The notes beneath the pieces are model-generated. The model did no database searches and was not told where the DNA came from. It was given only the letters and a program-made list of their open reading frames with translations. A stretch of DNA of 63,806 nucleotides, filler included, from Welwitschia mirabilis (lineage: Eukaryota): the NCBI GenBank assembly GCA_051453625.1. It is 8 parts of one record of this genome, joined end to end, with 100 filler letters (N's around TTAATTAATTAA, not from the genome) between each part and the next. Parts side by side here need not be neighbours in the genome. Positions count along the whole stretch, not along the records: positions 40,755 to 45,861 come from JBOZIK010000001.1; 7 more parts are not named here. One strand, written 5' to 3'. Positions within the stretch are counted from its first letter, which is position 1; the number at the start of each line of letters is the position of its first letter. Of the stretch, positions 8,401-63,806 are shown piece by piece. Position numbers and translations under genes: made by a program.

Positions 8401-9359
8401 ATTTGAACTAGGGATAATTTTAATTTCTGCAAAAAACATGTTATGGTTTAGCTTTGGAATTCAATTTCTTTCTTATATAAAATGCTCATACAAGAAGTGT
8501 CATTAAAATCCAAGTACTCACCTAGTATCTTATTGAAAAAAATAGAACGCATTTTAAGAAAGTAAAAGCTTTTAACTGTGTAAAGAAATATTATTAATCT
8601 AAATAGTTTAAGCTAAATAACATTTTTACCTATGAAAGAAACAATAGATGAAGTTTCCATGATGTTNNNNNNNNNNNNNNNNNNNNNNNNNNNNNNNNNN
8701 NNNNNNNNNNNNNNNNNNNNNNNNNNNNNNNNNNNNNNNNNNNNNNNNNNNNNNNNNNNNNNNNNNACATCATGTTTCTATAAAAAGAGTATACTTATTC
8801 ATTATTGCATTTTTCCAAAAATGTTAATGGTTATACTAGTTGAGTTCAATTATTTGTTGTCTGAGTCTAGTGAAATGAGGATCTTTAAAAAGTTTTTTAA
8901 AATTTGAACTAGGGATAATTTTAATTTCTGTAAAAAACTTATTATGGTTTAGCTTTGAAATTCAATTTCTTTCTTATATAAAATGCTCATATAAGAAGTG
9001 TCATTAAAATCCAAGTACTCACCTAGTATCTTATTGAAAAAAATAGAATGCATTTTAAGAAAGTAAAAGCTTTTAACTGTGTAAAGAAATATTATTAATC
9101 TAAATAGTTTAAGCTAAATAACATTTTTACCTATGAAAGAAACAACAGATGAAGTTTCCATGATGTTTTCATATGTAATTAGAAGATAATAAAACAAATT
9201 GTGCACTAAAAACAAACTTAAAATAAACAATTTACTTATCACGACATTCTATTTATAGAAATTTATAGCTCCCTATCATGTGTTGGAGTTTGACTTGCTG
9301 CATTTTCTGATAAAGGGGTGGTCAAAGTCATCAAATGAGGTATCAACAAAATATACTAT

Positions 9360-10100: not shown

Positions 10101-10200
10101 NNNNNNNNNNNNNNNNNNNNNNNNNNNNNNNNNNNNNNNNNNNNTTAATTAATTAANNNNNNNNNNNNNNNNNNNNNNNNNNNNNNNNNNNNNNNNNNNN
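10101..10200. other. Scaffolding linker gap (44 N + TTAATTAATTAA + 44 N); also at 30111, 40655, 45862, 54791, 56690 and 62148
   Basis: An identical 12-mer with stops in all six frames is centred in 100-bp gaps; this is an assembly artefact. Confidence 0.95.
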
Positions 10201-16200: not shown

Positions 16201-16523
16201 TAATATAACAAGAAGAATTTGGTGGTATNNNNNNNNNNNNNNNNNNNNNNNNNNNNNNNNNNNNNNNNNNNNNNNNNNNNNNNNNNNNNNNNNNNNNNNN
16301 NNNNNNNNNNNNNNNNNNNNNNNNNNNNTAGGAAACTACAAGGTAGATACTGGATGGGATTTGCCTGAAAATTTGGTAGATTTAGTGTACCCGCAATGAT
16401 CTAATTTTTAGTAATACCCCTTTCTCTTCCCTATTAATATAACAAGAAGAATTTTGTGGTATCACTTGTAAATTAGATGGCAATGGGATTACTCTGATGT
16501 ATGAACCAATAAATCTAAGCCTT

Positions 16524-16965
16524 TTTTAGGGATGCTCGGCTCTATGGGATAAGGTGCAGCACCTAGGATAGGAATACCTACTATAAAAACTAAAGGGGAA
16601 GACTGATTATGATATTACTCCATTTTAGAGATGATGAAAAGCAGATATAACTACCTTTAAAAGAATTTCAATTGAAGTTAGTGAGGAATCTTTGGCCTAT
16701 CTTTGAAAAATTTTCTTAATTACAAAGGGTAAAGAGTGGCCTTCCATTTATTCTTAGGAGGCATTCCTAAACTTTCCAGTGGCCACATAAGTAAAAAAGC
16801 ACTTCCACCTCCTATGGCTTAGAGGCTAAGTTAGTGGACAAATACTTTAATTAGTCAGGCTAATGCTTGAAGCTATCCAATTTGCACTTTATTTTTCTTA
16901 AGGCCCCAGACCAAGGGAATCATGTTAACTTGCCTTAATTTTTCATTCAAATGTTGAGAAAGAAG
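16524..16965 (+). pseudogene. PMD/Transposase_32-like accessory domain in LINE copy A
   Basis: GCSALWDKVQHLG*EYLL*KLKG...ITPF*R...ISIEVSEESLA...HISKKALPPP...KLVDKYFN*SG*CLKLSNLHFIFLKA...VNLP*FFIQML aligns collinearly with copy B 41626-42132. Confidence 0.65.
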
Positions 16966-17461
16966 GATAATACCTAGCACTTTAAACTTATAATGGCTCT
17001 TTGGAGAGGTAGGAGGGACTCTAAGGTGAGTAGGGAGGCTCCCTCCTCTTTCCCACACTGTAGGATAATGACTAAGGCCCAATAGCCAAAGGGGGAAAAA
17101 AGAAAACTAAAAATGACAAAGTTCTCAAGAAGAGTAACAGAATGAGCTGGGTGTTTTACAACCTCAGAGGAAGATGACTTCGCTTCTATCTGAGGAAATT
17201 CATGAATAGGTAGAATCGATTCCACCTCCCCATGAAGATTATATGATAAAATAAAAGGAGGAGCAGGTCTAGCTTGAGCAGGATCAAGAGAAAATCCCTT
17301 ATAAGAAGTTAGAAAGCTCAGAGTCTAGTAAGGAGACAAAGTTATAAAACCAAATAAATTCCAATATAGAGAGAGAAAATTAGACTGTACAAAAAAACAT
17401 TGATATCGAGCAAGCAATGAGGGAGGCTTTGCATGTTACAATTTGAGGGATGAAGAGATGC

Positions 17462-17681
17462 TCCTTCCTGATCCTTAGCATCATTCACAGAGCTTATCTA
17501 AGTATCATCAAATTGAGCTTTTAGAAGAAGGCATTTGAAACTTCATCCTAATAAGAATAAAGTAGGAGCAAAGAAGTTTAAAGAGGTGAACCAGGCCTTT
17601 GAGGCCCTGATGGATGAAATGGGTTAGCTTCTGATCAAGTGCCACCATACTCACTTATTCCCAAGTTGTAGGGGATATTAA
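17462..17681 (+). pseudogene. DnaJ J-domain at the 3' end of LINE copy A (stops, 1-nt frameshift)
   Basis: SFLILSIIHRAYLSIIKLSF*KKA / LKLHPNKNKVGAKKFKEVNQAFEALMD...LFPSCRGY* matches J-domain helix II, the HPD loop (here HPN, one G>A change) and helix III. Confidence 0.8.
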
Positions 17682-18229
17682 TCTGTCATTTTCTCCTAGT
17701 TTCATCTCAGTTTTTCCTAATTCTATTGTTAATCACATTAGTAATAGGATTGAGACCTGTCCATCTAATTTTTGCTATTAATGCCTTTTGTTTTCATTCT
17801 AGTATTGTCCACGATATTACTCTGTGGATTTGTTATGTTATAGTCACATTTCCTTGTACTTCCTTACAAATGGGTGCTTTCATCCCATTATCTATAATTA
17901 CTACTTTCTAATATAAATTTGATTTTACTATTTTAAAAAGAAAAAAAAAGGAAATAACTAATTTGGTCAAGAAACAACCAATTTGAAATGTCTTTGGGAT
18001 TAACTTGATCATGTAGCTATGGAATGAAGACATGGATTTAGAGAAAGTGATTTAAAACCCCATTCCACTTTAGATTAAATCTTTAAGTTTTCCTATCTAT
18101 TTTTAACCACTATGAATGTTCTATCTATTTAAATTGAATATTTTTCCCTTTTTTTTAATTATAAGTAAGTAAGCTTTTGTGTCATATGATTGTCTAGCAA
18201 CACTTGGGATTATAACATAAGGATGCAAC

Positions 18230-24569: not shown

Positions 24570-27500
24570 CTGCAGGAAAGAGTAAACACAGGAGAGAGTT
24601 CAGAAAGAGGGCAATTCTGATTCTTGCACCTTGCACAAGCCTGAATAGGTTGATGATGATGAGAAGCATGATACGCCTAGTGAAAATGTCTAGTCTAATC
24701 TAGACCAGCTTGAAGAAGAAAGCTTAAGTTTTAAATCTGAGTTTGATGTTAATGGTATTCAAATTGCAACACATTGGGTTCGAAGATCTGCTAGAGTTAT
24801 CAGATCACCTCAAAGGTACTCTCTGTCTTTACATTATGTGTTGGTTATAGATAAGGGAGAACTTAAATCCTTTGAAGAAGCTATTGCTTCTTCTGAATAT
24901 CATAAATGGAAAGCTACCATGCAAGAAGAAATGAAATCCCTAGAACGGAATCATACTTGGGATTTGGTTCCCTTACTGAAAAGACATAGGCCTTTAAAAT
25001 TCAAGTGGGTGTATGTCATCAAACAAGAGGCTGATAGTGGATAGGGCTTCAAAGCATGGGTGGTAGTGAAAGGGTACAACTAGAAACCAGGTATTGATTT
25101 TACAGAAATTTTCTCACCTATTGTGAAGCAGACATCTATTCGAATTTTGTTTGGCATGGTTGCTTGTTTAGATTTGGAGTTAGAGCAATGAGACATTAAA
25201 ATGACTTTTTTGCATGGCGATCTAGAAGAAGAAATTTATATGCATGTACCAGAGGGATTGGAAGTGGAAAATAGAAATCTTGTTTGTAGGTTGAGGAAGT
25301 CTCTTTATGGCTTGAAACAAACACCTTGTCCATGGTAAAAGAAGTTTGATGATTTTATGCAGAAACAGGGATACACCAATTGTGATTATGATCATTGTGT
25401 ATACCTTTACATGAGTGCTTTAGGCATGATTGTCATTCTTATGTTGTATGTTTATGATATGTTGGTCGCTAGAAATGACATGAAAGAAATCAAAAGACTG
25501 AAGCATGAAATGTCTTAAGACCTTTCAGCTAAAGATCTTCGACTAGCAAAAGAAACCCTTGGAATGAGGTTGTTTGGAGATAGATCATGTCACTGGTTAT
25601 GGTTGAGCTAACCTAAATATATTGATAAAGTTTTGAAACGTTTTAACATGCTAGATTGTAAACCTGTTTGTACTCCTCTAGCTACATGTTTCTAATTGAC
25701 TCATCAGGGTTGTCCTACTTCAGAGAAAGAGAAAGCAAAATCACAAGTGTGCCTTTTACATTAGCTATGGGAAGCATGATGTATGCCATGGTCTGTTCTA
25801 GACTAGACATTGGTCATGCAGTGGGAGTTTATCTCTCGTTTTATATGCAATCCAGGAAAATAGCATTGGGAAGCAATAAAATGGATACTTCGTTATTTGA
25901 AGGGAACCCCCAACTTATGAGTTTGTGTTTTGGCAACGCTGATTTCTATGTTATAGGGTATGTAGACGTCGATTATGCTAGTTGCAAGGATACTAGAAGG
26001 TCTACTACTAGTACATCTTTTGTCTATAATCAAATGTTGGTCTTTCCATTGCAAAAGCTGAGTATGTTGTCTTAACAGAAGCTGTTAAGGAGATGTTGAG
26101 GCCTTGTGGTCTTGTTGGTTGGTTTGGCCTTAGTCAAACCAAGTCTGTCATGCATTGTAATAGTCAGAGTGCCATAGATTTGACGAAGGACCTTGTTTAT
26201 CATGCCGAAACTAAGCACATTGATACTAAAATCATTTTATCAGTTAGAAGTTTGAAAAAGGCTTATTAGGTGTTTGGAAGATATACATGCATGCGAATCT
26301 TATTGATTCCTAGACAAAGGTTGTTGATGGTACAAAGCAAAAGGCATGTTGTGATGGAGTAGGTGTGCAGAGATTGTCTGGAAGGAAGGAAGTAAGCGTC
26401 TCTTGGAGCTGAATAAGTAGGTGCTTTTGAAAACCCCCCAAATTCTTTTTTCAAGTGGGAGAATGTTAGAAAAAGTGAAGCCAAATTTGTCTTTTTTTTG
26501 TTATAACATTATGTTTTAACGTTGACACTGTTATTGCATGCCTCTTTGTAATGTTGTAAATGTTGGGCATGCACTCCCCATGCATAGCTCGACAAGTGGA
26601 TAAATATGAAGGGTCTTGGTNNNNNNNNNNNNNNNNNNNNNNNNNNNNNNNNNNNNNNNNNNNNNNNNNNNNNNNNNNNNNNNNNNNNNNNNNNNNNNNN
26701 NNNNNNNNNNNNNNNNNNNNNNNNNNNNNNNNNNNNNNNNNNNNNNNNNNNNNNNNNNNNNNNNNNNNNNNNNNNNNNNNNNNNNNNNNNNNNNNNNNNN
26801 NNNNNNNNNNNNNNNNNNNNNNNNNNNNNNNNNNNNNNNNNNNNNNNGGCATGTTGTGAGGGAGTAGGGGTGCGGAGATTGTCTGGAAGGAAGGAAGTAA
26901 GCGTCTCTTGGAGCTACATAAGTAGGTGCTTTTGAAAACCCACCAAATTTTTTTTTCAAGTGGGAGAATGTTAGAAAAAGTGAAGCCAAATTTGTCTTTT
27001 TCTGGTTATAACATTATGTTTTAACGTTGACACTGTTATTGCATGCCTTTTTTGTAATGTTGTAAATGTTGGGCATGCATTCCCCATGCATAGCTCGACA
27101 AGTGGGTAAATATGAAGGGTCCTAGTTNNNNNNNAAGTCATGGCTCTTGATCTGATGATGAAGGGCAAAACAATTGGTATTAGAGCCATCGTTTTGGCTT
27201 GGTTTTGGGTTCGAATCTCCTTAGTGCCTTTTTGATTCATGTGAGTACTCGATATGTGAATTAAGAGGGGAGGTTGGGTATGCGCTTTTTATGCCTAGTG
27301 CGACGAGTGGGTAAATACGAAAGGTTCTAGTTTCCACCTAAGTCATGGCTTTTGGTGTGATGGTAGGTCCCAACAGTAAAAGGAGATTATGTTTTAACTC
27401 CTTAGGATATTTAAAAATGGGAAAGAAAAAGAAAAAAAAAAGGAAAGGAGAGGAACTTTCTAGAACTTTCTAGATTAACTTGGCATGAAACCCTAAACCT

Positions 27501-27712: not shown

Positions 27713-30700
27713 CTATCACTATCAATCTGCATTCGTAAGATTTGCCTTGTTGGTCCATGGTCTTTCATGGCAAATTTCTTGCCTATTTCAGCCTTCAAGT
27801 ATTTTATTTTATTGCTGTCATTTCCTTTAAACAACATCTCATTAACATACTATGAAAGAACACAAAATTTGCCTCTTAAATCACCTGAAACATAAATGCA
27901 ATTGTCGAAATTGCTTTTAATGTATTGCTACTTCTTTGTGAAAACATGAAACTTGTTGTACCACTGCCTGGGAGCTTGTTTCAGCCCATACAAACTCCTG
28001 TTTAACTTGCAGAGCAAATCTGGTTTTCTTTTATTAATGAAACCTTTAGTCTGTTGCATTTAAATTGCTCAATTTAGGTTCCCCTGTAAGAATGCTGTTT
28101 TAACATCTACTGGTTCTAGTTCTAAATTCATATAAGCAATTAGTGATAAAACAATTCTAATAGAAAAATGCTTTACAACAAGTGAGAATATTTCTGTAAA
28201 ATTAATACCAGCATTTTGTTCATGGCCCTTCACAACCAGCCTAGGTTTGTATATTTTTGTGCCATTAGAATCTGTTTTCAGCTGGAAAACTATCTATTTT
28301 TCAATGCCTTTCTCCCCTTTGGAAGGGGCACCCAGTCCCATTTATGGTTATCATTCAGGGACTTCCATTTTTCCTTCATTGCTGCCTCCATTTCTCCACG
28401 TTAGGGGAAGTTTTAACTTCTGCAAATGTTGTAGGTTCTCCACAATCAGTAAGCAAAACATAATTCAAAGATGGAGAACACCTATCCGGTTGCTTTGTTA
28501 ACCTGGTGGACCTTCTCACCTAATGTTGCTTGTTCACTTGTTCTTCATCTTTAGCCTCTTGCTCATCATGTTCACCTTCAATCTGTTCACCTTCAATCTG
28601 TTCATCCTCATTTTGAGACATGTCTTTAGCTTTTTTTCTNNNNNNNNNNNNNNNNNNNNNNNNNNNNNNNNNNNNNNNNNNNNNNNNNNNNNNNNNNNNN
28701 NNNNNNNNNNNNNNNNNNNNNNNNNNNNNNNNNNNNNNNNNNNNNNNNNNNNNNNNNNNNNNNNNNNNNNNNNNNNNNNNNNNNNNNNNNNNNNNNNNNN
28801 NNNNNNNNNNNNNNNNNNNNNNNNNNNNNNNNNNNNNNNNNNNNNNNNNNNNNNNNNNNNNNNNNNNNNNNNNNNNNNNNNNNNNNNNNNNNNNNNNNNN
28901 NNNNNNNNNNNNNNNNNNNNNNNNNNNNNNNNNNNNNNNNNNNNNNNNNNNNNNNNNNNNNNNNNNNNNNNNNNNNNNNNNNNNNNNNNNNNNNNNNNNN
29001 NNNNNNNNNNNNNNNNNNNNNNNNNNNNNNNNNNNNNNNNNNNNNNNNNNNNNNNNNNNNNNNNNNNNNNNNNNNNNNNNNNNNNNNNNNNNNNNNNNNN
29101 NNNNNNNNNNNNNNNNNNNNNNNNNNNNNNNNNNNNNNNNNNNNNNNNNNNNNNNNNNNNNNNNNNNNNNNNNNNNNNNNNNNNNNNNNNNNNNNNNNNN
29201 NNNNNNNNNNNNNNNNNNNNNNNNNNNNNNNNNNNNNNNNNNNNNNNNNNNNNNNNNNNNNNNNNNNNNNNNNNNNNNNNNNNNNNNNNNNNNNNNNNNN
29301 NNNNNNNNNNNNNNNNNNNNNNNNNNNNNNNNNNNNNNNNNNNNNNNNNNNNNNNNNNNNNNNNNNNNNNNNNNNNNNNNNNNNNNNNNNNNNNNNNNNN
29401 NNNNNNNNNNNNNNNNNNNNNNNNNNCCTTTTAAAATTTACTCTACGTGACTTTCCAACTTCACAATCTTTATAGAATTCAAAGCAAGAAATAGGGATTT
29501 AGACTATAGTACCTTCAAACCCGATTGACTAATGTGTCTTAGCCACCTATGCCACAAGCTTGAATATGTTGTAACAGTTGTAGCCCCTTCTTACTTCCTA
29601 ATAGCAGCAACATGCAAGGTGTGCATGGAATCTTCCTTGGTTCCTTTCAAAACAGTCATAGCACCTTTGCTGATTTTCTAGGTACCTCCAGAAAAAGAGA
29701 GCCTACAACCCAACTTATCAAACTGTTCTACAACTAGTAAATTTTTGGTTATTTTTAGAACATGTCTAACATTTTTGATAATGATGTATTGTCCATCTTC
29801 TTGCTTTGACCCAGTCAGTGATGAAAATGTCGACAATTAGTTTATGTCGGCCGTCTGTAAAAGTCGTGTTGGGGAGACCTGTCGCCATGTCAGCGCAAAA
29901 TGTCTGCAATTGTTTTTATTTAAAAATTAATGGAAATTTGTTATTCACAGGATTTAAAAGCAACATATAGTTAAAAAAGCTAAAATAAGCAATTCAAATA
30001 TTCATTTAATGTGAATAGATAACTAGCAACTGATTCTCACATAGCCACATGGAAAGCAAAAGCTCTGAAAGCATTAAAATTTAAAAATTATAGTAAACAT
30101 TGTTCATTTCNNNNNNNNNNNNNNNNNNNNNNNNNNNNNNNNNNNNNNNNNNNNTTAATTAATTAANNNNNNNNNNNNNNNNNNNNNNNNNNNNNNNNNN
30201 NNNNNNNNNNATTTACTGTTGAGTCATTAAAAGATCCTTGTGAAGGTTTTGGGCCTTACTACGCATTTAGGTCAAAATTGTGACCTAAAATACTCACTGT
30301 GCGTTTTCTCTGCCAATGATCCAGCTCTAGTGCTCGAGTCTCCAGCAGTCCAGTGTGATTTCAAAGAGTGTGTTTTCTACTCTCGATCTCTCCAACAATC
30401 TAGCACACCAGTGTTTCTCTGCCTTCCATGATCTTCACCTTCGTGCTTCTCTATTCATGTGTGCTTCTCTCCAGTCTCCCACGTTTCTATGTTTTTCCCC
30501 TTTTGTGCGCTTTCCTTTTATGCAATAAAAGATTGGAAAATGTTGGCGACAGATTGAACAAAAATCGCGACTTTTACCAGATTTTTGCGTGGCGACTTGT
30601 CGCTGACATTTTGAATTTGTCAGCTCAAAATGTTGCCATGACAACGATTTTTTGGCGGTGTGAGGCGACATGTTGCCTAATAAAAAACAGAGGACCCAAT

Positions 30701-40637: not shown

Positions 40638-40972
40638 TTCTGCCACTTGAAGACNNNNNNNNNNNNNNNNNNNNNNNNNNNNNNNNNNNNNNNNNNNNTT
40701 AATTAATTAANNNNNNNNNNNNNNNNNNNNNNNNNNNNNNNNNNNNNNNNNNNNAGTAAAGGTATTTTGTTAATTATTCAGGAGAGGACTATGAAATAGA
40801 ATAAAAATTGGGGTGAAACCACCCCTGAGGAAATAGACTAAATACAAGGGACTGCCTATTTAGAAGAGTAAAAGCATAGAACTACTAATAAGCTAGAGGC
40901 AAAAATGCCCTACACTACCAGAAGTTACATAATGCTTAAGTTTGAAAAGAAAAAGACCTAGGAGGAAGAGAA

Positions 40973-41190
40973 TTAGAGTCCTCTATAGAATGGAAACAAA
41001 TCACCATGATTGTGGTTGAGCAAGAAATAACCCATATCATTAGAGAGTATCTCAACCTCCTTGAATTCTTTAGCACCTGCTAGATTTTTATCTGGATGAA
41101 ATCTGAGGGCTGTCTTTCTATAGATGGACTTGATAGCTTGAGTAGGGCTCTGTGAAAGAGTCCTAATGTGATAAATGGATATCTCTTTAG
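40973..41190 (-). pseudogene. DnaJ J-domain at the 3' end of LINE copy B
   Basis: YPFITLGLFHRA / AIKSIYRKTALRFHPDKNLAGAKEFKEV-EILSNDMG...LFPFYRGL*: intact HPD motif, a frameshift after helix I and a small deletion in helix III. Confidence 0.85.
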
Positions 41191-41625
41191 ACCTTAAATT
41201 GTTCTCAACATAACTTCCCATCGAGCAACATTCATGTGAATGTCCTCTTGAGGGTGAGGTTGAATTTCTACTAAAGAAGAATCTAAGGTATAGTTCTAAG
41301 TAGGGATGGGGCTCGTTACGAGCTAAGGATAGGTCTAGTAATGCCTACCTTACTCTTAGGAGTTAGGGGCAGGAATTTTTGAATTAGCTCTTAAGCTGTC
41401 CCATGGATAGGCTCCTAAGCTATCTCCTGTTGGGTTGGGAGCAAAAACATCTCCTCTAAATAATGAACTAGGGATTCCTTCTATAATGGCTCTTCTTTTG
41501 GAGGCCCTCCTTGGAGGAGTCTAATATGGATGTAATTGGAGAGGAGGCAGAGGGGCCTCTTTTACCCTGATTTCTTGGGCTACTCTCCACAGAGCTAGAA
41601 CTAAATCCAAATGCCTTGAGGAATA

Positions 41626-42132
41626 TTTCCTTTAAAGAGATTAGATAACAAAGAATGGAAAATTCACCTAACACCCTAGGTCAAGGGCTTTAAGAAAAGG
41701 AAAATAAATACCTAAAAGTTTAGAGTAATTCCCAGACTGAATGATATAGTGGTTAACTAACTTTATGCCTAATCCTCATGGGGGTGGTAGCATCTTTCTA
41801 CTAATGTGCCTTCTTGGAAATTTAGAAGCCCAATTAGGGAAGAAGTGAAGCACTTCACATTACTCTCAGCTTCCAAACTGAATACATTCTCCTTCTGTAG
41901 GAATCTTCAACACCCTAGAGAGGGAATCTTTAGTGATCTCTATAGGGATTCTTCTGAATGTTATGCACCTGTCTTTCCATCATCTATAAAAGGGGGCGAT
42001 ATCAACCCTGTGATCTCCCCTAAGCTTGTGCAGGAGGGGTTCCCATCCCATAGCTTGCACTTTTTCCCACAAGACAGGGCAACCTTCAAAGAGGTCAGGG
42101 TCAAAAGTCTTGATTGTAGGCATGGCTTCCAT
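41626..42132 (-). pseudogene. PMD/Transposase_32-like accessory domain in LINE copy B, in the same frame as the post-zf-RVT motif
   Basis: MEAMPTIKTFDPDLFEGCPVLWEKVQAMGWEPLLHKLRGDHRVDIAPFYR*WKDRCITFRRIPIEITKDSLSRVLKIPTEGE...HISRKMLPPP*GLGIKLVNHYIIQSGNYSKLLGIYFPFLKAL...VNFPFFVI*SL. Confidence 0.7.
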
Positions 42133-45100
42133 TGTGAGTTAGATTTGGAAATGTTAGTATTTCATCTTCTTTATAGTATTTAAAGGTAAAGGTAAGGATA
42201 CATTATTAAAAATCAGATCATTTTTAATTCTTTAAATCTACCAAAACATCAAGCAGATCCTATCCGTTAATTGTGTATCAAGGGTGTTGCAGGTCTGATG
42301 ATACTTCTTCATAATGAAGATTAATTATTTAATTCAAGTGTAATGATGAAATAAATACTATGCTATTTTAGGACTTAATTGGCAGATGGGATAGTTTATG
42401 TCCAGTTGAAATCCTCTTTTGAGTAATTGGTCTCTAGTTAAGATTCTATGGTGGTCCTTTAACTAATAAAAGACTTTAGTTTTTTTCGGAATTTGACCTT
42501 TCTATACTTATTGTAGGAGTCATCTTTTACATATTTCTTTAAGAAAAGCTATTNNNNNNNNNNNNNNNNNNNNNNNNNNNNNNNNNNNNNNNNNNNNNNN
42601 NNNNNNNNNNNNNNNNNNNNNNNNNNNNNNNNNNNNNNNNNNNNNNNNNNNNNNNNNNNNNNNNNNNNNNNNNNNNNNNNNNNNNNNNNNNNNNNNNNNN
42701 NNNNNNNNNNNNNNNNNNNNNNNNNNNNNNNNNNNNNNNNNNNNNNNNNNNNNNNNNNNNNNNNNNNNNNNNNNNNNNNNNNNTGGGTAATAATCTCTTA
42801 TTTTTAGAGATAAATTTGGTGATGATCTTTTTCTTCTTAATCATATAAACTCCTTTAAGATCTTATTAATTTTTTGGATAATATTTCTTAGGGGAAGTAA
42901 TAATGGAAGCTATGTAACATAAATAAGAAATTAAACAAGAGTTTATGAGGATGATTTTAGTTTTGAATAAGAGAAATTTTTTCTGCCAAGAGTTCTGCTA
43001 CCTTTGAATAAACTTAATGATGTAATTTTAAGTAACGGTCTTATGCCAGTTTCACAGGGGAATTCTAAGGTATATATCCTAAAGGTCTCCTAATTTTGCA
43101 TTAGGATTTAGATGATTTTGCCCTCTCTAATAAATTTTTTGTCCAAAGTGTGGATTCTTGACTTATTCTAGTTGGTCTATAAACCTATAACTACTATAAA
43201 AAGTTTCATAGAATTTTTTATTGCTTTTTTTTTATTGGCATGAAGCCCTGGTTATGATGATGGTATTATCTANNNNNNNNNNNNNNNNNNNNNNNNNNNN
43301 NNNNNNNNNNNNNNNNNNNNNNNNNNNNNNNNNNNNNNNNNNNNNNNNNNNNNNNNNNNNNNNNNNNNNNNNNNNNNNNNNNNNNNNNNNNNNNNNNNNN
43401 NNNNNNNNNNNNNNNNNNNNNNNNNNNNNNNNNNNNNNNNNNNNNNNNNNNNNNNNNNNNNNNNNNNNNNNNNNNNNNNNNNNNNNNNNNNNNNNNNNNN
43501 NNNNNNNNNNNNNNNNNNNNNNNNNNNNNNNNNNNNNNNNNNNNNNNNNNNNNNNNNNNNNNNNNNNNNNNNNNNNNNNNNNNNNNNNNNNNNNNNNNNN
43601 NNNNNNNNNNNNNNNNNNNNNNNNNNNNNNNNNNNNNNNNNNNNNNNNNNNNNNNNNNNNNNNNNNNNNNNNNNNNNNNNNNNNNNNNNNNNNNNNNNNN
43701 NNNNNNNNNNNNNNNNNNNNNNNNNNNNNNNNNNNNNNNNNNNNNNNNNNNNNNNNNNNNNNNNNNNNNNNNNNNNNNNNNNNNNNNNNNNNNNNNNNNN
43801 NNNNNNNNNNNNNNNNNNNNNNNNNNNNNNNNNNNNNNNNNNNNNNNNNNNNNNNNNNNNNNNNNNNNNNNNNNNNNNNNNNNNNNNNNNNNNNNNNNNN
43901 NNNNNNNNNNNNNNNNNNNNNNNNNNNNNNNNNNNNNNNNNNNNNNNNNNNNNNNNNNNNNNNNNNNNNNNNNNNNNNNNNNNNNNNNNNNNNNNNNNNN
44001 NNNNNNNNNNNNNNNNNNNNNNNNNNNNNNNNNNNNNNNNNNNNNNNNNNNNNNNNNNNNNNNNNNNNNNNNNNNNNNNNNNNNNNNNNNNNNNNNNNNN
44101 NNNNNNNNNNNNNNNNNNNNNNNNNNNNNNNNNNNNNNNNNNNNNNNNNNNNNNNNNNNNNNNNNNNNNNNNNNNNNNNNTTTTTTATTGCTTTTTTTTA
44201 TTGGCATGAAGCCCTGGTTATGATGATGGTATTATCTACATAGTGATTGTTGATAAAAGTTTGACCTCCACTTCTAATTCCTGTAACTCCATTTCTTCTT
44301 AAAAAACCTATAAAACATTCATTACAAAGAGAAAAATATATGGGGATAGGGGGTCTCTTTGTCTTACCCCTCTACCTACTAAAAATAAATTTGATTTATG
44401 ATTGTTGATCTCCACACTGAATTCAACTAAAGATTGCATATCTAGCCATAAATTAATAACATCTTGAGGAAAAATAGTTTTTCTAAGGATACATCCTAGT
44501 GCTTGCCAACTAATTAAATCATAAGCTTTAGCAATATATAACTTAGTAATAAGGAGAGGACATTTATATTTTTTTAATAAAATGAATGATTTCATGAGTC
44601 AGGAGGATTTGGTCTTAGATATACCTAGATCAGATAAAGCTGGCTTGGTTTTCTAAAATCACATTTAGAAGCAGGAGGTGATACAACCAACTATGATTTT
44701 TGCAAAAATTCTATGAAGAACATTACATACACCTATGAGCCTAAAATTATCTGATTTGCTAGTGTTCCTTTTCTTAGGGATAAGAANNNNNNNNNNCCTA
44801 GTTCTATTCATTTCCTTAGGGACTCATTTATTATGAAAAACTTCCTGCATCACATCCTAAAGGTCATTCCCTAATATAGAGAAATAAGATTTAAAAGTTT
44901 AATTAACCATCCATCAAGGTCAAGGGCTCTATTATTCTTCATAGATCTTATAGAAGCCAAGACCTCCTTTCTACTTAGAGGTTTAGCAAACATAGAGTTG
45001 TCTTCACTCGAGATTTTCTTAATTTATGGAANNNNNNNNNNNNNNNNNNNNNNNNNNNNNNNNNNNNNNNNNNNNNNNNNNNNNNNNNNNNNNNNNNNNN

Positions 45101-47889
45101 NNNNNNNNNNNNNNNNNNNNNNNNNNNNNNNNNNNNNNNNNNNNNNNNNNNNNNNNNNNNNNNNNNNNNNNNNNNNNNNNNNNNNNNNNNNNNNNNNNNN
45201 NNNNNNNNNNNNNNNNNNNNNNNNNNNNNNNNNNNNNNNNNNNNNNNNNNNNNNNNNNNNNNNNNNNNNNNNNNNNNNNNNNNNNNNNNNNNNNNNNNNN
45301 NNNNNNNNNNNNNNNNNNNNNNNNNNNNNNNNNNNNNNNNNNNNNNNNNNNNNNNNNNNNNNNNNNNNNNNNNNNNNNNNNNNNNNNNNNNNNNNNNNNN
45401 NNNNNNNNNNNNNNNNNNNNNNNNNNNNNNNNNNNNNNNNNNNNNNNNNNNNNNNNNNNNNNNNNNNNNNNNNNNNNNNNNNNNNNNNNNNNNNNNNNNN
45501 NNNNNNNNNNNNNNNNNNNNNNNNNNNNNNNNNNNNNNNNNNNNNNNNNNNNNNNNNNNNNNNNNNNNNNNNNNNNNNNNNNNNNNNNNNNNNNNNNNNN
45601 NNNNNNNNNNNNNNNNNNNNNNNNNNNNTCAAATGAGATTTTACTTAAATCCTTGCCTATAAGAATTCTATTAATTTTAGACATAATCAAATATTTATCT
45701 ACTCTTCCATTGGACAAAGTGTACTTGCACCCAGTGATAGGGATGTCTGTAAGAGAGTTTTTTGTCAAAACGTCTTTTAGGATTGAGGCTTCTTTGGAAT
45801 TTTAATTGTCATCCTCAGATTTTTCCTAGTGATGAAGAAATTGATTAAAGTTACCCAAGATNNNNNNNNNNNNNNNNNNNNNNNNNNNNNNNNNNNNNNN
45901 NNNNNTTAATTAATTAANNNNNNNNNNNNNNNNNNNNNNNNNNNNNNNNNNNNNNNNNNNNTTTGCTTATGGTAGCATATGCTCTGATTGTGTTTGGTCT
46001 TCTCACAAAACGTACATGTTTCCTTTGGCTTTTTCTTAATGTTAATCAGCCATTTTCTACATTCTTCTCTTAAATGACCCAATATTCCACAATGTGAACA
46101 TTTCTTTTTATGAGGAGCACATCCCTAAAAAGATGTCCTAATTTTTTTAAACCCATGAAAGGAACTAGAAGATTCTCATAAGTAATGTCAATCTCACAAA
46201 TACTCCATTTAGATCTAAATTTTATGTATTGAATCTACTTTGTATTCTTTAGGCTCATCCCAATACAAAATTTAGTTAACACTAGTTTTATCTATTTAAT
46301 AGTGATCCTGTCAAGTTTGATAAGTTCACCAAAATGAGCCACCATTTTTCTTAAGGGATATTCATCCCAAAACTCTAATGGAAACTTGTGAATGTGGATA
46401 CAACTTGGTAACCTCTTAAATAGGTTTTGGTTCATTTATACCCGTGACATCCATTTAGCTAGGGCAAGACCTCAAACCNNNNNNNNNNNNNNNNNNNNNN
46501 NNNNNNNNNNNNNNNNNNNNNNNNNNNNNNNNNNNNNNNNNNNNNNNNNNNNNNNNNNNNNNNNNNNNNNNNNNNNNNNNNNNNNNNNNNNNNNNNNNNN
46601 NNNNNNNNNNNNNNNNNNNNNNNNNNNNNNNNNNNNNNNNNNNGATGAAACAAACTTTTGATTAGACAGTATTTAAGTTTCTTATCAATATCACAGCATG
46701 CATCTTCATTAATGTCTAAAAATAGGGATTCCCCTTTCCTAAAGAACTAATTCTTTTGCATTTTAGGGCCAAACCCCTTGAAAAACCCCCTAAAAGTAGA
46801 TTAGCATTGAGTATTAAAAATATTCTGCAACTTACCCATAGTAGGCCTATCTGGCTGCTGAAATCACCCCCACATACTATGACAAAGGATTAAAACCACT
46901 TCCATTGATCTGTGGCCTTCTAAGCCTCACTCCCTCCTATGCTTCAGATTTGCCAAACCCTAGTAGAGTTTCAAAACCTTAGCAGAGCTCCTCGGTGTAG
47001 TTGTTATAATTGAAAATTATTTTATAAAGATTGGATACCTTAGTTAATATTTTATAATGCCTTGAATATTAGCATTCATTTAGAAAAGTGTGATGGTAGT
47101 ATTTTTTGGGAGAGGTATGTTCATAAAAAATTTTAAGTTCAACAATTCCATTCATTTATTAAGAAAACTTCTTTATTTCAAAATCATAATCGTTCAATCA
47201 ATATAACCTTATAAAAGATAATATATCTTAGAAATNNNNNNNNNNNNNNNNNNNNNNNNNNNNNNNNNNNNNNNNNNNNNNNNNNNNNNNNNNNNNNNNN
47301 NNNNNNNNNNNNNNNNNNNNNNNNNNNNNNNNNNNTCTTAGAAATATCCATGTATAAAATTAAGTAATTTCATAGTAATGTACTATTTAAAAGAATAATA
47401 GACTACTAATAAGATGATAGTCCAACCAGGGTGGTGGTGTTCATCTATTTAAGAGATTCTGGTTTTAAATCCTTAAATAATTGCTTGACATACTATAAGG
47501 TCTTAAATGTGATTAGATTTTTTATTTCAGTGATCATAGTGGTCATAGTTCTAGAGGAAGGCATGGTCACTAAAAAGTTTTAAGTTTAATGTTTTGCTCC
47601 TAATAGAATAGTGGATCAAAAATCAATTTAATTATTTATTATATTTATAATCAATTAGAAGTATATAAATATTAATCAATGTTCAACATATCATTAGAAC
47701 ATGCATTATAATTAATTTTAGAGTCCTATATTTAATCACAAACTTCAATTTGCAACTACATTTATATAATCTATGGATATTAAAACTTATATCTAAAAAT
47801 GTTTAATTAATTATTAGTTATAATGTGGTGTCAAAATCTAAATCGTAATTTGATATTAACTTAAAAAAATCCAAAATACATAGGAATAA

Positions 47890-50800
47890 TAAGATTAAGA
47901 AGCCTTTAACAAGGCTATAGAGATAGTACAACTAAAAAAGTTTCTATGAACTAGAAATAAATTATAATAGTCAAAGTTAAGCTCTTTAGAAGTAATAAAA
48001 AAGCTTTAAGCATCATTTGTAATATGATCCTTAAGTTGTATAAAAATACTCCTATGGTATTTACTTTATCCACTAGATATAGGCTATGTAGGATATAACA
48101 TAAGCGTCTAAATGAAAATACTATTCTATGTAATAACTAGATTTTAAGGAGGCACATTTGAAATGAAGTAAGATCCATCTAACTACTAATCTACTTATTA
48201 AAGAAAATAGTTAACCTCTTATGGCATTTCATTTCATACATTTGGAACTAAAAAGTAATACTTTGCAAATAGAATCTTAAGTTTAGAAAAGCAGAGTTAG
48301 TGATTCTTTAAAAAATATGATTGCATTAATTTTTCTAGATTGCATGATGGATGAAGGATTTTAAACACTTCTAAAGAAATACATAATGCCTTTAAATATT
48401 TTAGAACATCTCTAAGAAGAATATGCTTTTATGTTGAATGGTATCAAAAAGGCATAATAATACATGTCTAAGAATTTTGACCCATAAATAAATAAATGAA
48501 GTAATGTTAAAAACTATCTTTACTATTATAAGAAGGATAGGTAGCAGGTGCAAATTTCATATGGAAAAGCCTTTTACCTATAGGTAAACCTTGATGAAGA
48601 ATATGCCACAAAAAGTGCTATTATTTTAACAAAGGAGGTAATTTCTAGTTAGTTATGAGTTATGAAAAGCCATTAGGTGAAGCCATCTCCTTTGTAATCA
48701 ATCATTTATGGTTCATAATTCATCTAAAAGTAATAATAAGTTGAGAAATAAATATCTTATAAAAAATGGAGGATTTCTTAGTTAATTCCAATTTAAAAAC
48801 CTAGATATTTGTAAGGATTGATTTGTAAAATATCATCCTTTTGAAAATTCATATGCTTTCTCAGTTTGTGATAGTTAAGAGTAGGAATTCCTTTTCTTTT
48901 GCAATATATAGAAATCTAAATTTCTCTTAAATCTTCTTTAATTTTGGATAATTATCCTTATAATGCAAAATCTCCCACATTTTCCTTTTACTTTTATAGT
49001 AAATGAAAAGACAATATTTGATTCCCCTCTTAGTTCATTTTATAAATATATTTAGCTAACCTTAAAATAATATTTTAATTTAGTAGTATTCCAACATCTT
49101 AGAGATGCAAACTTAGCTATTTTAGTATCTAGCTATAGACATCAAGTAGTAAGGGGTTAAAATACACTTAGAATTATTTAATAAAAACATACTGACTAAA
49201 TTATTACATCTTTTCTAACTATTTTTTTAATAGCTATTTCTACTAAGATATTGAATATCATTTATGAATTGAAATACACATATATATTTCAATCTTGTAA
49301 CCTTCCAAAATATTTAAATGTCTTGCAGTATTCATTTTCCTCTTGTGCTTAGTAGCTTTAAAATATATTTTGGATTTTTTTACCTTACCTTTAAACCTAT
49401 ATTACTTTTTATTTTATCCATGTTACTTGTAATTTTTTATCTTTAATCATAGTGGATTTACTAATAATTAAAGTGTCATGCATGTAGTAGTTATATGAAA
49501 TAATGTACCTAAAAAGAATAATATGTATCTTCTATAGGTAATATCTAATGAAAATCTTTCACTATGTTGTGAGTTCAAACAAAAATTCACAGACTTGTTA
49601 TAAAATTCCTTTTCAATCATGACACCATAACATTTAATGTATCTTTTTAACTCACAATCATAAGCTTTCCTTAAATGTAATAGACATGATTTAGAGCACC
49701 ATTTTCCCACACTTTCAAAGTTGCTTAACTTGAAGATAAAACCAAGGAAATATAAGCATTGACATAAAGAACTTGGCAAATAGCTTTTTCTTCACTCATG
49801 GAAGTGTTATCTTAGCAAAATCATGCCTTTAATCAATTCNNNNNNNNNNNNNNNNNNNNNNNNNNNNNNNNNNNNNNNNNNNNNNNNNNNNNNNNNNNNN
49901 NNNNNNNNNNNNNNNNNNNNNNNNNNNNNNNNNNNNNNNTGATGGATGAAGTATTTGAAACACTTCTAAAGAAATACATAATGCCTTTGAAGATTTTAGA
50001 ATATCTCTAAGAAGAATATGCTTTCATGTTGAATCGTATCAAAAAGGAATAATAATTCATGTCTAAGAATTTTAACCCATAAGGAAATGAATGAAGTAAT
50101 GTTAAAAACTATCTTTACTATTATAAGAAGGGTAGGTAGCAGGTTCAAATTTCATATGGGAAAGCCTTTTTCTATAGGTAGACCTTGATGAATAAGATGC
50201 AACAAAAAGTACTATTATTTTAACAAAGGAGGTAATTTCTAGTTAGTTATGAGTTATGAAAAGCCATTAGGTGAAGTCATCTCCTTTGTAATCAAATATT
50301 TATGGTTCATAATTCATCTAAAAGTAATAATAAGTTGAGAAACAAATATCTTATAAAAAAAGGGAGGATTTATTAGTTAATTCCAATTTAAAAAACTAGA
50401 TATTTGTAAGGATTAGTTTGTAAAATATCATCCTTTTGAAAATTTAGATGCTTTCTCAATTTGTGATACTTATGAGTAGGAATTCCTTTTCTTTTACAAT
50501 ATAGAGAAATATAAATTTCTCTTAACTCTTCTTTAATTTTGAATAAGCATCCTTATAATGCAAAATCTCCCACATTTTTATTTTACTTTTATAGTAAATG
50601 AAGAGACAATACTTGATTCCCCTCTTAGTTCATTCTATAAATACATTTAGCTAACCTTAATATAATCTTTTAATTTAGTAGAATTAAAACATCTTAGAGA
50701 TGTAAACTTAGCTATTTTAGTACCTAGCTATAGATATCAGGTAGTAAGGGGTCAAAATACACTTAGCATTATTTAATAAAAACATACTGACTAAATTATT

Positions 50801-51410
50801 ACATCTTTTCTAACTGTTTTTTTAATAGCTATTTCTACTAAGCTATTAAATATCATTTATGAATCAAAATACACATATAAATTTCAATCTTGTAACATTT
50901 CAAAATATTTAAATGTCTTGCAGTATTCATTTTCCTCTTATGCTTAGTAGCATAAAAATATATTTTGGATTATTTTAACTTACCTTTAAACCTGTATTAA
51001 TTTTTATTTTATCCATGTTACTTATAATTTNNNNNNNNNNNNNNNNNNNNNNNNNNNNNNNNAAATAATGTACTTAAAAAGAATAATCTATGTCTTCTAT
51101 AGGTAATATCTAATAAAAATCTTTCACTATGTTGTAAAGTCAAATAAAAATTCACAGAATTTTTATAAATTTCCTTTTCAATCATGACATTTAATGTATC
51201 TTTTTAACTCATAATCATAAGTGTTTCTTAAATGTAATAGACATTATTTAGAGCATCATTTCTCCACACTTTCAAAGTTGCTTTACTTGAAGATAAAATC
51301 AAGAAAATAGAAGCATTGACATAAAGAACTTAGCAAATAGCTTTCTCTTCACTCATGGAAGTGTTATCTTAGCAAAAGCATTTCTTTAATCAATTCTAGA
51401 TTACATTGCA
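47890..51410 (-). mobile_element. LINE ORF2 3' portion (RT C-terminus plus zf-RVT), third family; about 1.5 kb duplicated across the gap 49841-49939
   Basis: LPPLLK**HFLWHILHQGLPIGKRLFHMKFAPATYPSY...DSF*HYF (about 48490-48645) fits the zf-RVT pattern; 48345-49840 recurs at 49940-51395. Confidence 0.75.
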
Positions 51411-54790: not shown

Positions 54791-54890
54791 NNNNNNNNNN
54801 NNNNNNNNNNNNNNNNNNNNNNNNNNNNNNNNNNTTAATTAATTAANNNNNNNNNNNNNNNNNNNNNNNNNNNNNNNNNNNNNNNNNNNN

Positions 54891-56689: not shown

Positions 56690-59600
56690 NNNNNNNNNNN
56701 NNNNNNNNNNNNNNNNNNNNNNNNNNNNNNNNNTTAATTAATTAANNNNNNNNNNNNNNNNNNNNNNNNNNNNNNNNNNNNNNNNNNNNATATATTTTAT
56801 ATTTTATTTACGCATTTCAATTCTTAGTAAATGTGATAGGTATACTATATTATGAATAGACATTCTTTTTTTTGTATTATGTGATTGATAGATTTTATGT
56901 TTCTTAAAATAAATGAGCATGTGAATAATTATATGCACTCTTACCTAGAACCAAGAATGATAAATGAGTAGATTTATGCTACAATGACTTTTTATTTTCT
57001 TAAGATGTGTAAGGACACTTAGTTCATAATAAATTTATTTTTTCAATTGGAATTAAAGAGTTTATCTCATTATTCCATAAAACAAACTTGAAATTTGTGC
57101 ACTTATCCTTTTGATGCATGTTTTGGATGAATTAAACTTACTTATGAGCCTATGAAGGATTAAGAAGGAGCTAACATAAGGAAATGATGCATGTAATTAA
57201 ATTTACTAATCAAATAAATAAGATTACTCACACTAGTTACTTGCATAAGTCATAAATATGATCTCTCTTTTTATTTCAATATCACTTATTACTCATCCCA
57301 CTTATTAATGATTAATCATGTGATCTTGTGATCTTGAGCTATGCACCTTTGTTTATCTATATATAGATATTCTTTTCTCTCTTACAAAGAGGAAATACTT
57401 TTCATTTTTCTATACAAGGGCATTTCCTTCTTTTCTCTCTCTTTCTTTCATTCTCTTACTTATGGAGCTTAGAGCTTGGAAGTTTCAAGTTAAGGAACTG
57501 TTGATTTTGGATCTTCATCAATCTTCAACTTTCAAGAACTTACTAATCTTTTTAAGGAAGCTCTTTACTCATATTATCCATATGTTTTCATTTAATATTC
57601 TAGTAGAATGATGTAATACTTGCATGATACCACTATTCATGATATATCATAAAGTTATTTTATTCCCTCCTATTAGCTCTTACTATGATGTGAGGAGATA
57701 TGAGGGATCTCTTATGCTTGGTGATAGAGTTTAGTAATAGACTATTATGGCCAAGTGACCACTTCAAGAATTCACTATATACTTAGGTACTGATATTCAT
57801 CTTGTAATAATATATTATTAAATAATCATGCATAAGGTCTATCTTATTAGGGGCATAGTCTTATCCTTAAAAAAAATCTCTTTCAAGATAGTACTCCTTC
57901 ATGATAATCCTAAGGCTTATTATAAATGCTTTTGTGAATTGATTTAATTATTTTTTCTAAACTAATTTTCACTAGTAGTATTTAGTAAAGTTATATTATA
58001 AATTATAAGTTTGCCTATTGTATTCATTATTTTACTAATTCAAATTATTGTATAATTAGATGTTGAGCCTCTATTATATTTTCTTTAGCAAAAGTTAAAT
58101 TTCTAAGATAGCGACATAGGATAAAAATATCATACCTTATTAATTAGTACGTAAAAATTACTAAATTTTTTTTGGTAAGCCTAGGATTATGTTATGAACA
58201 TGAAAATGTAAAAAAGTAATTTTTTTGATGTGTAATTATTTTTAAGAAATTTATTCATTAAAATACATTAGGAAATAAATGCAAAAAATATTAAGCAATT
58301 AAGTTATATTTCTATAACTAACAATAATAATATATGAAAATGTGAGCATCCTAAGTTGTAGGTAATTAAAAAATATTTCCAAATTACTTGTCTTAGTGTA
58401 GTGTGGTAGGGCTATAATTTTAGAAAACTTGACAATTTTTAACTTTAAATCATGTTATTAAAAATATAATTTTTAGATTTTCAAGATAGCTTAATTTAGT
58501 TTCTAATAATCCTATTATGAGTTTAGTTTATGAAAAATTGCTTTAATTTATTTTTACTTCATAATTAATTAATTATTAAATTTTTATAATGATGTATTTT
58601 AGAGCTTAAAAACATTATAAATAACGTTTTAAATTATAGAAAAAATATTATATTAAATTCTATAAGAATTTTAAGTATATAAGATAAGTTTCAATTAGTA
58701 TCTTTAAGTTACATTACTTAAAAATAATATTTTATTAAGAGAAATACCTTTTTTACCATTTTCCTTCATCTTACTTTGCATGTGTATGCTTGTAGGAGTT
58801 CTCAACTTAGTAGTTTAATTAACATAAATAATCCTTAATTTATCATTGATTTTCTTAACTTATAATATAGCCATGTAAGTATTAAATAGAGTATTATGTC
58901 TTATTAATCATACTTGAGATATACTTTTTTTTTAATCTTCATTTCACTTATCCATGAAGATTGTCATATGAGTATGGGAATATACTTCTAGGATTGACAT
59001 AGTTTTAGGTATGGATTAGTTTCTTTAAATACATTATTAAAATGTAATTTGATATATTTTAAATATTTTTATTATTATTAAAAGAAATAAAATAAAAAAT
59101 ATCCACTTTATTTATATAGAAAAGAAAATAATATTTCCTTTATTTAAATTTTCATTATTATAATCTTGAATATAAAAATGTTCTAGTATGCATGCTTTTT
59201 CTTTTATAATTATTTCTATAAAATGAATCTAATAATGATTAGAATTATTATAACTAGGTAAATAATCCCTTAAATAATCATATTAATTAGAATTATATGC
59301 ATGTATTTATGTGATGTATCCATTATACAGGACTAAATCAAGAAAATCCTAATAATGATTATTTCTATGCTTGGATTTCATCATCAAGTTGGGTTGCATT
59401 GCATTTTTTTTTCAATAGCCTTCTAGAAGTGGATTTGATCATCACTCTCTTATTCTACCCATGTATTACTCCAACTTAATATCTCGACCCCTTGACATCG
59501 ATGGATCATGTTGCACTATTTGGAGATGTTTTAAGGAAGTGGGGGTTATTTGTAAATATGCATGTACCTCATGTAATGCCCAACACCTGTATTGAGGGTA

Positions 59601-62147: not shown

Positions 62148-63806
62148 NNNNNNNNNNNNNNNNNNNNNNNNNNNNNNNNNNNNNNNNNNNNTTAATTAAT
62201 TAANNNNNNNNNNNNNNNNNNNNNNNNNNNNNNNNNNNNNNNNNNNNAGAAATAAAAAGGTTTTAACCCTTTCTTTATATATGTATAAATAATAATAATT
62301 ATTAAAAAAAAAAGTGTTCCAACTGTTTTAAAATATTAAAAAAATAAAATAAATATTATGAAGGGGAAAGAACATATTATTAAGGGTCTAGTGTAGACAC
62401 CTTCATCGTTTAGGTTAAAATAATAATAATAATAATAATAGTAAAAGAAAAAGACGCATGATGTTGTAGCGATCATTTTGGAAATAGTAAGGAGTCAGCC
62501 ATTATAGAAAGAGCCCACATGTAGTGAACATATGACATTATTTTTAGTAACATATTAGATCTTAACAGTTACTGAATAATGATGACGATGATAATAATAA
62601 TAATAAATAAATAAATAAAAACCCAACTAGATTTTAATAATAATAATTTACAACTAAGCCTCCTTTAATGTGTAACACCTTTATCATGTGGGTGGGAGAA
62701 TCAAACTACCCATCCAATTTTTATTCTTATTTGTCCTTACCCGTTACATCAGTGTTTAATAATGACAAATGAAGAGGCATTATGAAAAGGACACATGTCC
62801 GTGGGAGCATTATGTTCGAGGCCAAAATAAAATGGAGGAGAGATCCGCATGAATTACTATCATCTATTACCTGACATGACCTCGTTCCTATGATTTTAAT
62901 GGCTCCATTACCTTGTGAGTGAATAATAGTGGGCTTGAGGACCATCGCATCTTATTTTGAGAAGCAAAGTCAGGCATAACCTTTTTGGTTATACTTGCTT
63001 GACAAGGGCCCATAAGAGAGATGTTATAGGCATATTTTTACCATCAAGGAATTCCCACCAAAAAAATGACTACTGCCATAGCTATTGAAGGTTATCGAGT
63101 CAAAGACATTCACAAAATGATAATAGCTTTTACACATTCAAGTGCTAAATTTGGGTATGGTATGTACGAAGCAGACTGCGTGTAAATCAACTTAAGGTAA
63201 GGCGCCATGAAATCATCTTGCAAAATTCATATTAGTTATGCTTTCCTTTTCAATCCCCTTATCCAAGGTCAAAAGAGCATAGAAATAAGTTTGTTAACAT
63301 TTTTAGAGGGCATGCATTCTCAGGTCCTCATTTACGTTCTAATTTTTAGGGTTAAAATTCGGATGTCTCATATGTTCTAGCTTAGTTTACCGAATCTCGT
63401 AAATTATCTCTTCAACTCACAGATGAAGAAAGAGTGGATGACGCTGAAGGTTTTTTCTATGTATTTCTTTAAAGTAAAGGACAACAGACTTCTGCATGAT
63501 AATGAGGGTCGCTGGTTGTGCTTGTCATACAAAAGCTTTCCGAGGTTGCGAAGAGTCTTGTACAGATGAGAGAGTGCACTTCTACAGTCAGCTTATGAGG
63601 CTTCTATTGTAAAATGTGTTGTAAAATAAATCTGGTTAATGAATAGTACTTAACATATCTGCAAATATGTTGGTAATACATAGAATGAAAGCAAACATAT
63701 ACATCTATATGACAACATACAATAACCTAAAGTGAGTTCATTTTCAATTTCATATGGGCATAGTAACATTAAAATAGAGCTCTCTCAAATAGAAAATGAA
63801 GTAACT

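Follow-up and report, generated by a model that had tools for sequence, protein, structure and literature searches.

A Transposase_32-like domain and a J domain in the 3' accessory module of an L1-type LINE family from Welwitschia mirabilis

A decayed L1-type LINE in the window (the whole stretch of 63,806 nucleotides of Welwitschia mirabilis DNA analyzed here) carries, on the 3' side of the zf-RVT motif of ORF2, an accessory module of about 385 codons that consists of a Transposase_32-like domain, a fast-evolving linker and a J domain. LINEs are known, in rare cases, to have acquired extra domains; what appears to be new here is the combination of a Transposase_32-like domain with a J domain in an L1-type LINE family. 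The explanation that best covers all of the observations, and that we hold to be reasonably probable as a whole, is that this was once a constrained accessory module of an abundant LINE, captured once, translated from its own ATG as an ORF3, and serving to recruit Hsp70.

The window is AT-rich (32% G+C), contains 42 runs of N, and holds two copies of the element, both of them now dead. Copy B lies on the minus strand and is a decayed L1-type LINE interrupted by N gaps. It is collinear with copy A from ORF1 until slightly beyond the J domain (A 11130 corresponds to B 46777 and A 17699 to B 40958 by blastn/tblastx), with a DNA identity of about 60-73% across the collinear stretch; beyond the J domain the likeness fades. 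Upstream of zf-RVT are RT motifs and an ORF1 of the CCHC/DUF4283 type, the RT and CCHC motifs having been spotted by eye. The DUF4283 match in copy A is weak (E 0.0013, under the cut-off) and Pfam did not recover RVT_1 from the broken frames; zf-RVT of copy A is found at E 6.4e-8 (33.6 bits vs a cut-off of 27.5), and copy A has an A-rich run at about 17935-17949, some 255 bases past the module stop. An ORF1 with DUF4283/CCHC, an RT, a zf-RVT motif and an A-rich 3' end are the features of a plant L1-type LINE. Neither copy is intact, copy A having more stops and frameshifts than copy B, and a tblastn search with the copy B translation found no third copy of the domain within the window.

In copy B, one minus-strand frame (codon starts at 42549-3k) runs for 399 codons, from 42549 to 41353, with 20 stops and no frameshift. 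It reads, in order, zf-RVT, FW*I*RIKNDLIF, TAA, TAA, the ATG of MEAM, GWEPLLHKLRG, IEITKDSLSRVLKIPTEGE, LPPP*, YIIQSGNYS, FLKAL, and VNFPFF; from ATG 42132 onward it holds 9 stops in 261 codons (protein P0002). The original prediction, that an extra domain frame follows zf-RVT in this copy and is broken by stops only, therefore stands, all of the strings it quoted having been found. Its proposal that copy A preserves the domain holds as well: tblastn aligns the copy B translation there at 42-50% amino acid identity, in two pieces (16521-16712, 50% over 64 residues; 16795-17043, 42% over 83 residues), with one frameshift near 16730. The conserved domain reaches to about 41560, so the end first given for it, 41626, falls inside the domain. 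The features are as follows.

40958..46777, minus strand: portion of LINE copy B collinear with copy A (blastn/tblastx), with ORF1 region, RT, zf-RVT and accessory module
42367..42513, minus strand: decayed zf-RVT motif of ORF2 (Pfam PF13966, E 0.005, residues 13-61 of P0001)
42208..42246, minus strand: FW*I*RIKNDLIF after zf-RVT, both of its stops common to copy A
42133..42207, minus strand: poorly conserved spacer of 25 codons from the ORF2 tail to the ATG, with TAA 42156-42154 and TAA 42141-42139; family depth dips here
42130..42132, minus strand: ATG of MEAM, where the accessory ORF may start; aligned ATG in copy A at 16483-16485, Met in relatives
41560..42132, minus strand: Transposase_32-like domain of about 190 residues, with 7 internal stops and no frameshift (phmmer, hhalign, codon-phased A/B differences)
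41251..41559, minus strand: variable linker of about 100 codons; A/B mismatches not codon-phased, lowest family depth of the stretch
40976..41250, minus strand: conserved stretch before the J domain, and J domain (Pfam DnaJ), with HPD at 41098-41090 and a 1-nt frameshift near 41141-41146
40973..40975, minus strand: stop codon of the module, matched in position by that of copy A (17679-17681)
16449..17043, plus strand: copy A spacer, ATG (16483-16485) and Transposase_32-like domain, with a frameshift near 16730
17390..17681, plus strand: copy A conserved stretch before the J domain, J domain (HPN at 17544-17552) and stop (Pfam DnaJ, E 3.6e-7)

The J domain, which the original prediction had missed, ends the module in both copies, past the variable linker. 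The DnaJ family (PF00226) matches copy A at E 3.6e-7 (30.6 bits, above the Pfam cut-off of 27.8) and copy B at E 2.9e-6 (27.7 bits, just under the same cut-off), and 19 J-domain sequences of the PDB are found at E <= 0.01, the best at 1.4e-6. Helices I-III are recognizable. The HPD tripeptide is present in copy B, which reads FHPDKN (41098-41090), and is one change off in copy A, which reads HPN (17544-17552). Helix I of copy B is still in frame with ORF2 and the upstream domain; the loss of one nucleotide near 41141-41146 then shifts the frame, and helix III is 12 nt shorter than in copy A. Near 41055, family contigs and RNA reads have loose ends whose consensus gives, on manual translation, NQAFEVLSD, the usual helix III motif. 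Neighbors of the J-domain ORF in the Atlas are leads only.

Decayed as they are, the two copies retain a record of past selection. Copies A and B were aligned as nucleotides with MAFFT, blind to frame, and their mismatches were tallied by codon position 1/2/3 of copy B. Across the Transposase_32-like domain these number 72/61/120 (p 4.4e-6), with the excess in the transversions (32/17/69, p 6.9e-9) and the transitions flat (40/44/51, p 0.45). A third-position excess is likewise seen in zf-RVT (39/31/57, p 0.015) and in the parts of the J domain taken together (36/23/49, p 0.009), while the linker (55/61/55, p 0.81) and the 3' UTR (33/28/31, p 0.81) are flat. This pattern indicates purifying selection on both the Transposase_32-like domain and the J domain during the divergence of the A and B lineages. 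It fits a history in two phases, in which active lineages diverged under purifying selection and then decayed neutrally, with many transitions. Because the linker has no coding signal, the two domains need not form one ORF. Two trivial sources of the codon-phase signal were ruled out: a choice of tblastx segments, by the frame-blind alignment, and deamination bias, by the location of the signal in transversions. Codon-phased differences in the copy B frame, the collinearity of the two copies and the match to a transcript labeled Welwitschia (below) together argue that the feature is not a product of chance.

The decay of both copies consists mostly of point changes to stops, and many of these coincide. 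Between A (11459-17675) and B (46444-40979), 13 of 883 aligned codons are stops in both copies, vs 1.25 expected if stops arose independently, and the common positions include both stops of W*I*. In our reading, codons that turn easily into stops (Trp, Gln, and Arg) decayed in parallel in the two copies, since 7 of the 13 differ in stop codon between the copies, since a stop private to one copy often faces Q, W, or R in the other (7 of 14 in B, 15 of 28 in A), and since relative P0003 carries R, R, and Q at places where B has stops. Parallel C-to-T and G-to-A changes in a heavily methylated genome are the likely source. The common stops could instead have been inherited from an ancestor that was already dead, but such descent would leave the phased transversions unexplained.

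As to how the module was translated, we slightly prefer an accessory module with its own start (ORF3) to an ORF2 tail that is fused or reached by read-through; both states, fused and separate, may occur within the family. At the DNA level copy A retains the ATG, and relatives from other sources (P0003, P0004, P0005, and P0007) begin with Met exactly at the place of the copy B ATG, reading MGATP, MRGNP, MGGPL, and MGGPC vs MEAMP. Both window copies, moreover, have a stop three codons upstream of the ATG and in phase with it (TAA in B and, aligned with it, TAG 16474-16476 in A). From the ATG to the conserved LF.GC there are 53 nt in A vs 54 nt in B, and the ATG of copy A is out of phase today.

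The strongest rival, a possible arrangement if on our reckoning an unlikely one, makes the module a C-terminal extension of ORF2p, with endonuclease, RT, zf-RVT, Transposase_32-like domain, and J domain encoded by one ORF. Copy B fits it well, since zf-RVT, spacer, domain, and J helix I share one frame, free of indels, over about 1.4 kb. The original prediction had looked to the conservation of the two TAA codons before MEAM to separate the two arrangements. Of these, TAA 42141 reads AAA in 88% of the family depth from a DNA run (X4) of the organism to which the window apparently belongs, and in 95% of that from a run under a second organism label (X5), which favors fusion. The other two spacer stops (B 42156 and A near 16440) are not common to both copies, and none is shared in the ORF2 frame. 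Three further stops of copy B in the zf-RVT region, which appear among the best-supported 40 of 652 differing places, are found in B alone or in a minority of copies. There is also a precedent for fusion in the R1 LINEs of insects, which are reported to have a helicase domain added C-terminally in ORF2 (PMC4686597). In copy A, too, the ORF2 tail and the domain are currently in the same frame, but the spacer differs by 2 nt between the copies and, past the ATG, A lacks 1 nt, so that the identity of frame in A depends on compensating indels; the same frame would be met by chance one time in three. The kept ATG, the Met of the relatives and the in-phase upstream stops of both copies weigh on the side of a separate start.

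The module belongs to an abundant family. Contigs at least 80% alike were aligned to the stretch, with 7205 matching contig pieces from X4 and 4471 from X5. In X4, where summed depth counts all such contigs and is not a copy number, the ranges are 2454-7124 for zf-RVT, 509-1357 for the spacer, 982-5240 for the domain, 135-614 for the linker, 984-5704 for the J domain with the stretch before it, and 649-1247 for the 3' UTR. The module is thus repeated about as often as the 3' end of ORF2, in two organisms. That another element lies nested within both copies was considered and ruled out by their collinearity and by the even depth of the family. Low-level transcription is seen for diverged relatives: RNA reads number 39 in run X12 and 20 in run X15, of which 35 and 18, respectively, are under 90% alike, and most overlap the stretch only partly. 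Expression of this locus itself was not seen in these two RNA runs.

Abundance and codon phase also bear on a second rival, in which the module is a fragment of a host or transposon gene, acquired by 3' transduction or template switching and carried passively, with no role for the LINE. Several observations would suit such cargo: LINEs do transduce their 3' flanks, the domain occurs in its relatives as a stand-alone ORF with the same Met at its start, neither window copy is still alive, and no constraint is seen on the linker. We nevertheless judge it improbable. The third-position excess (most clearly in the transversions) arose between LINE lineages that already bore the module, while the linker and 3' UTR stayed flat, and the depth of the module is of the same order as that of the ORF2 3' end in both organisms.

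The identity of the upstream domain was harder to establish. P0002, the copy B translation from the ATG, has no Pfam match at E <= 10, the two domain pieces of copy A have none either, and the only match of the long piece P0001 is zf-RVT. A phmmer (HMMER) search of 1.84 billion representative proteins with the window translation returned six proteins at E <= 0.001, gymnosperm or plant-like overall. The closest, P0003, is labeled as an ORF of a Welwitschia mirabilis transcript (91 residues; E 1.5e-29, 64% identity over residues 2-89). P0004, labeled as a Ginkgo biloba protein, contains two tandem copies of the domain and is the sole longer protein among the HMMER matches of all lengths; the other four come from short contigs. 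A word-index protein search gave no matches of near length for P0002, and for alignment A2 just two proteins, both already known. As an observation in its own right, P0004 (593 residues) has no J domain, so that stand-alone, duplicated forms of the domain exist in a second gymnosperm.

One of the six relatives, P0006 (E 3.7e-5 to the window translation in the same search), opens the way to a known family, matching Transposase_32 (PF20167) at E 1.5e-5. It has 33 further relatives, of which 12 were scanned against Pfam; 9 of the 12 match PF20167 exclusively and 3 match nothing. The best PF20167 match is that of P0009 (E 3.1e-10, 40.6 bits, profile positions 3-169 of 177), and the other matching relatives, P0006 included, score 15.8-25.4 bits, every score lying under the gathering cut-off of 45. 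When the window subfamily (alignment A4, 6 rows) was compared by hhalign with the P0006 subfamily (alignment A3, 26 rows), the two aligned over 185 columns with a probability of 99.0 and E 2.7e-18; the partner in this comparison is a subfamily that matches PF20167, not PF20167 itself, so the link to Transposase_32 is transitive. Neighbors of P0005 in the Atlas, a lead only, include, at rank 2, a cluster of PF20167 (0.88) and, at rank 10, one that is partly ATHILA (0.87). Neither the window translation nor its relatives reach the 45 bits of the Pfam rule, and for this reason we classify the domain as a remote relative, not a member, of Transposase_32; profile methods support remote homology across the whole domain, and on these sequence comparisons it appears to be such a relative. 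According to PMC11728184, a sunflower Athila element has PF20167 in an extra ORF on its 3' side, and the family is related to ATHILA ORF-1 (PF03078); the label "LTR-retrotransposon-type" is taken here from that single source.

The original prediction had named PMD and Transposase_32 together as the likely type. The second name survives, by way of the P0006 subfamily, and the first does not, PF10536 being absent from every scan. The exchange of domains between LTR and non-LTR elements that it also proposed is a putative origin of the domain, in either direction. PMD (PF10536), RVT_3 and RNase_H gave no match with the window translation at E <= 10 or with 18 relatives at E <= 0.1 to 1, and RNase H was likewise absent among the rows of a fold search with the model of relative P0009, a model of moderate confidence. 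A diverged RNase H, the outcome named beforehand as speaking against the prediction, was therefore not found; the sole family to match was PF20167. That the domain is nonetheless of the PMD type, or that it is a diverged form of the RNase H usually found as an extra domain in plant L1, is very hard to credit: some plant L1 elements carry RNase H at this place and the motif pattern W...F...I.IT.D.L...L.IP..GE bears some resemblance to the N-terminal part of PMD, but against these points stand the Pfam results and a best fold match to VANC21.

That fold match was obtained from the relative P0009; the AlphaFold model of the window domain itself, with a mean pLDDT of 51.5, was set aside. The best of five models of P0009 has a pLDDT of 74.2 and a pTM of 0.69, the other four lying at pLDDT 45-65. 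Foldseek found nothing in the PDB at E <= 0.001 with this model; DNA-bound VANC21 came second in its ranking (TMq 0.44). A second fold search, independent of Foldseek, placed VANC21 first of 48,161 chains at a Z of 6.5, which is below the level of trust advised for the tool (rmsd 4.2, 178 residues); the match covers residues 1-196 of the model, and the next row has a Z of 4.0 over 65 residues. A profile of alignment A7 against PDB sequences gave 0 matches at E <= 10, and there was no Pfam match to the VANC families (DUF1985/DUF287). The likeness of the predicted fold to VANC21 may be taken as a lead.

J domains recruit Hsp70 and switch on its ATPase, a property established for the family, and this suggests how an ORF3 with its own start could have served the element. 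We infer a single capture of the module together with its start codon. Translation would have begun at ATG 42132 by reinitiation a few codons past the ORF2 stop, and the J domain would be predicted to bring host Hsp70 to the target, of whatever kind, of the Transposase_32-like domain. The bound target may be nucleic acid, if the weak fold match of the modeled relative to DNA-bound VANC21 is a guide. The predicted outcome is that assembly, remodeling, or targeting of the LINE ribonucleoprotein is aided.

A bolder version of this mechanism follows from VANC proteins, which, according to PMC5735166, bind short DNA motifs and strip silencing marks from their own transposon. By analogy, the LINE might encode its own counter-silencing or targeting factor, composed of a VANC-like, sequence-specific nucleic-acid binder and a J domain that would recruit Hsp70 to remodel chromatin- or RNP-bound complexes. 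We give this version little credence. If it were true, a non-LTR element could spread despite very heavy cytosine methylation, and the Transposase_32 / ATHILA ORF-1 family would gain its first functional handle.

Comparison with known systems places the module among accessory proteins of plant transposable elements. To our knowledge, Transposase_32 and ATHILA ORF-1 have no known function. Like the window domain, the Transposase_32 / ATHILA ORF-1 (PF03078) proteins of Athila-type Ty3/gypsy elements are non-enzymatic accessory proteins of a retroelement, and remote homology to them probably extends over about 170-185 positions by way of the intermediate subfamily; unlike them, the window domain belongs to a non-LTR element, in which it stands on the 3' side of zf-RVT with a J domain after it. 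VANC21 of the Mutator-like transposon VANDAL21 (PDB 9lnk/9lnj) is likewise an accessory protein of a plant transposon, but it has no sequence similarity to the window domain, belongs to a DNA transposon and is without a J domain. With the J-domain (DnaJ/Hsp40) co-chaperones the module shares a DnaJ match in both copies, HPD in copy B, and helices I-III; unlike in those proteins, the J domain here is C-terminal, in a retrotransposon, and beside a Transposase_32-like domain.

Among LINEs themselves, the plant L1 elements with an archaeal-type RNase H have also gained a foreign domain on the 3' side of ORF2. The same is reported for insect R1 with its viral SF1 helicase domain (PMC4686597). Unlike either case, the window LINE has gained a different type of domain, has gained two domains together and may encode them as a separate ORF. 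In a full-text literature search, in which subscription journals were thinly covered and a report may thus be in print, we found no J domain or Transposase_32-like domain reported in any LINE. The case is of wider interest for bringing a domain of the Transposase_32 kind, in a non-LTR element and under past purifying selection, together with a J domain whose biochemistry is well understood. It offers two leads: the element may exploit host chaperones, and the client or nucleic acid may be bound by the Transposase_32-like domain.

Some minor observations concern the gaps and repeats of the window. The gap at 40655-40754 is made up of 44 N, TTAATTAATTAA, and 44 N, and its inner letters read as a stop in all six frames, as in artificial contig joins. 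The same layout of 44 N, 12 bases, and 44 N (compared for layout only) recurs at 10101-10200, 30111-30210, 45862-45961, 54791-54890, 56690-56789, and 62148-62247. Adjacency across these gaps may not be real, and one of them cuts the 3' end of copy B. Other N gaps are flanked by repeats of 94-97% identity: 8266-8565 vs 8767-9066, 14330-14629 vs 15046-15345, 16120-16216 vs 16347-16415, and 26343-26547 vs 26848-27052. These look like assembly redundancy (overlapping contig ends or haplotypes) and not biology; in copy A, such redundancy duplicates part of the RT and zf-RVT tail. A tandem unit of about 1.5 kb also occurs twice across an N gap (48345-49839 and 49940-51396; families D4-D8), with 92-94% identity and a spacing of about 1595 bases.
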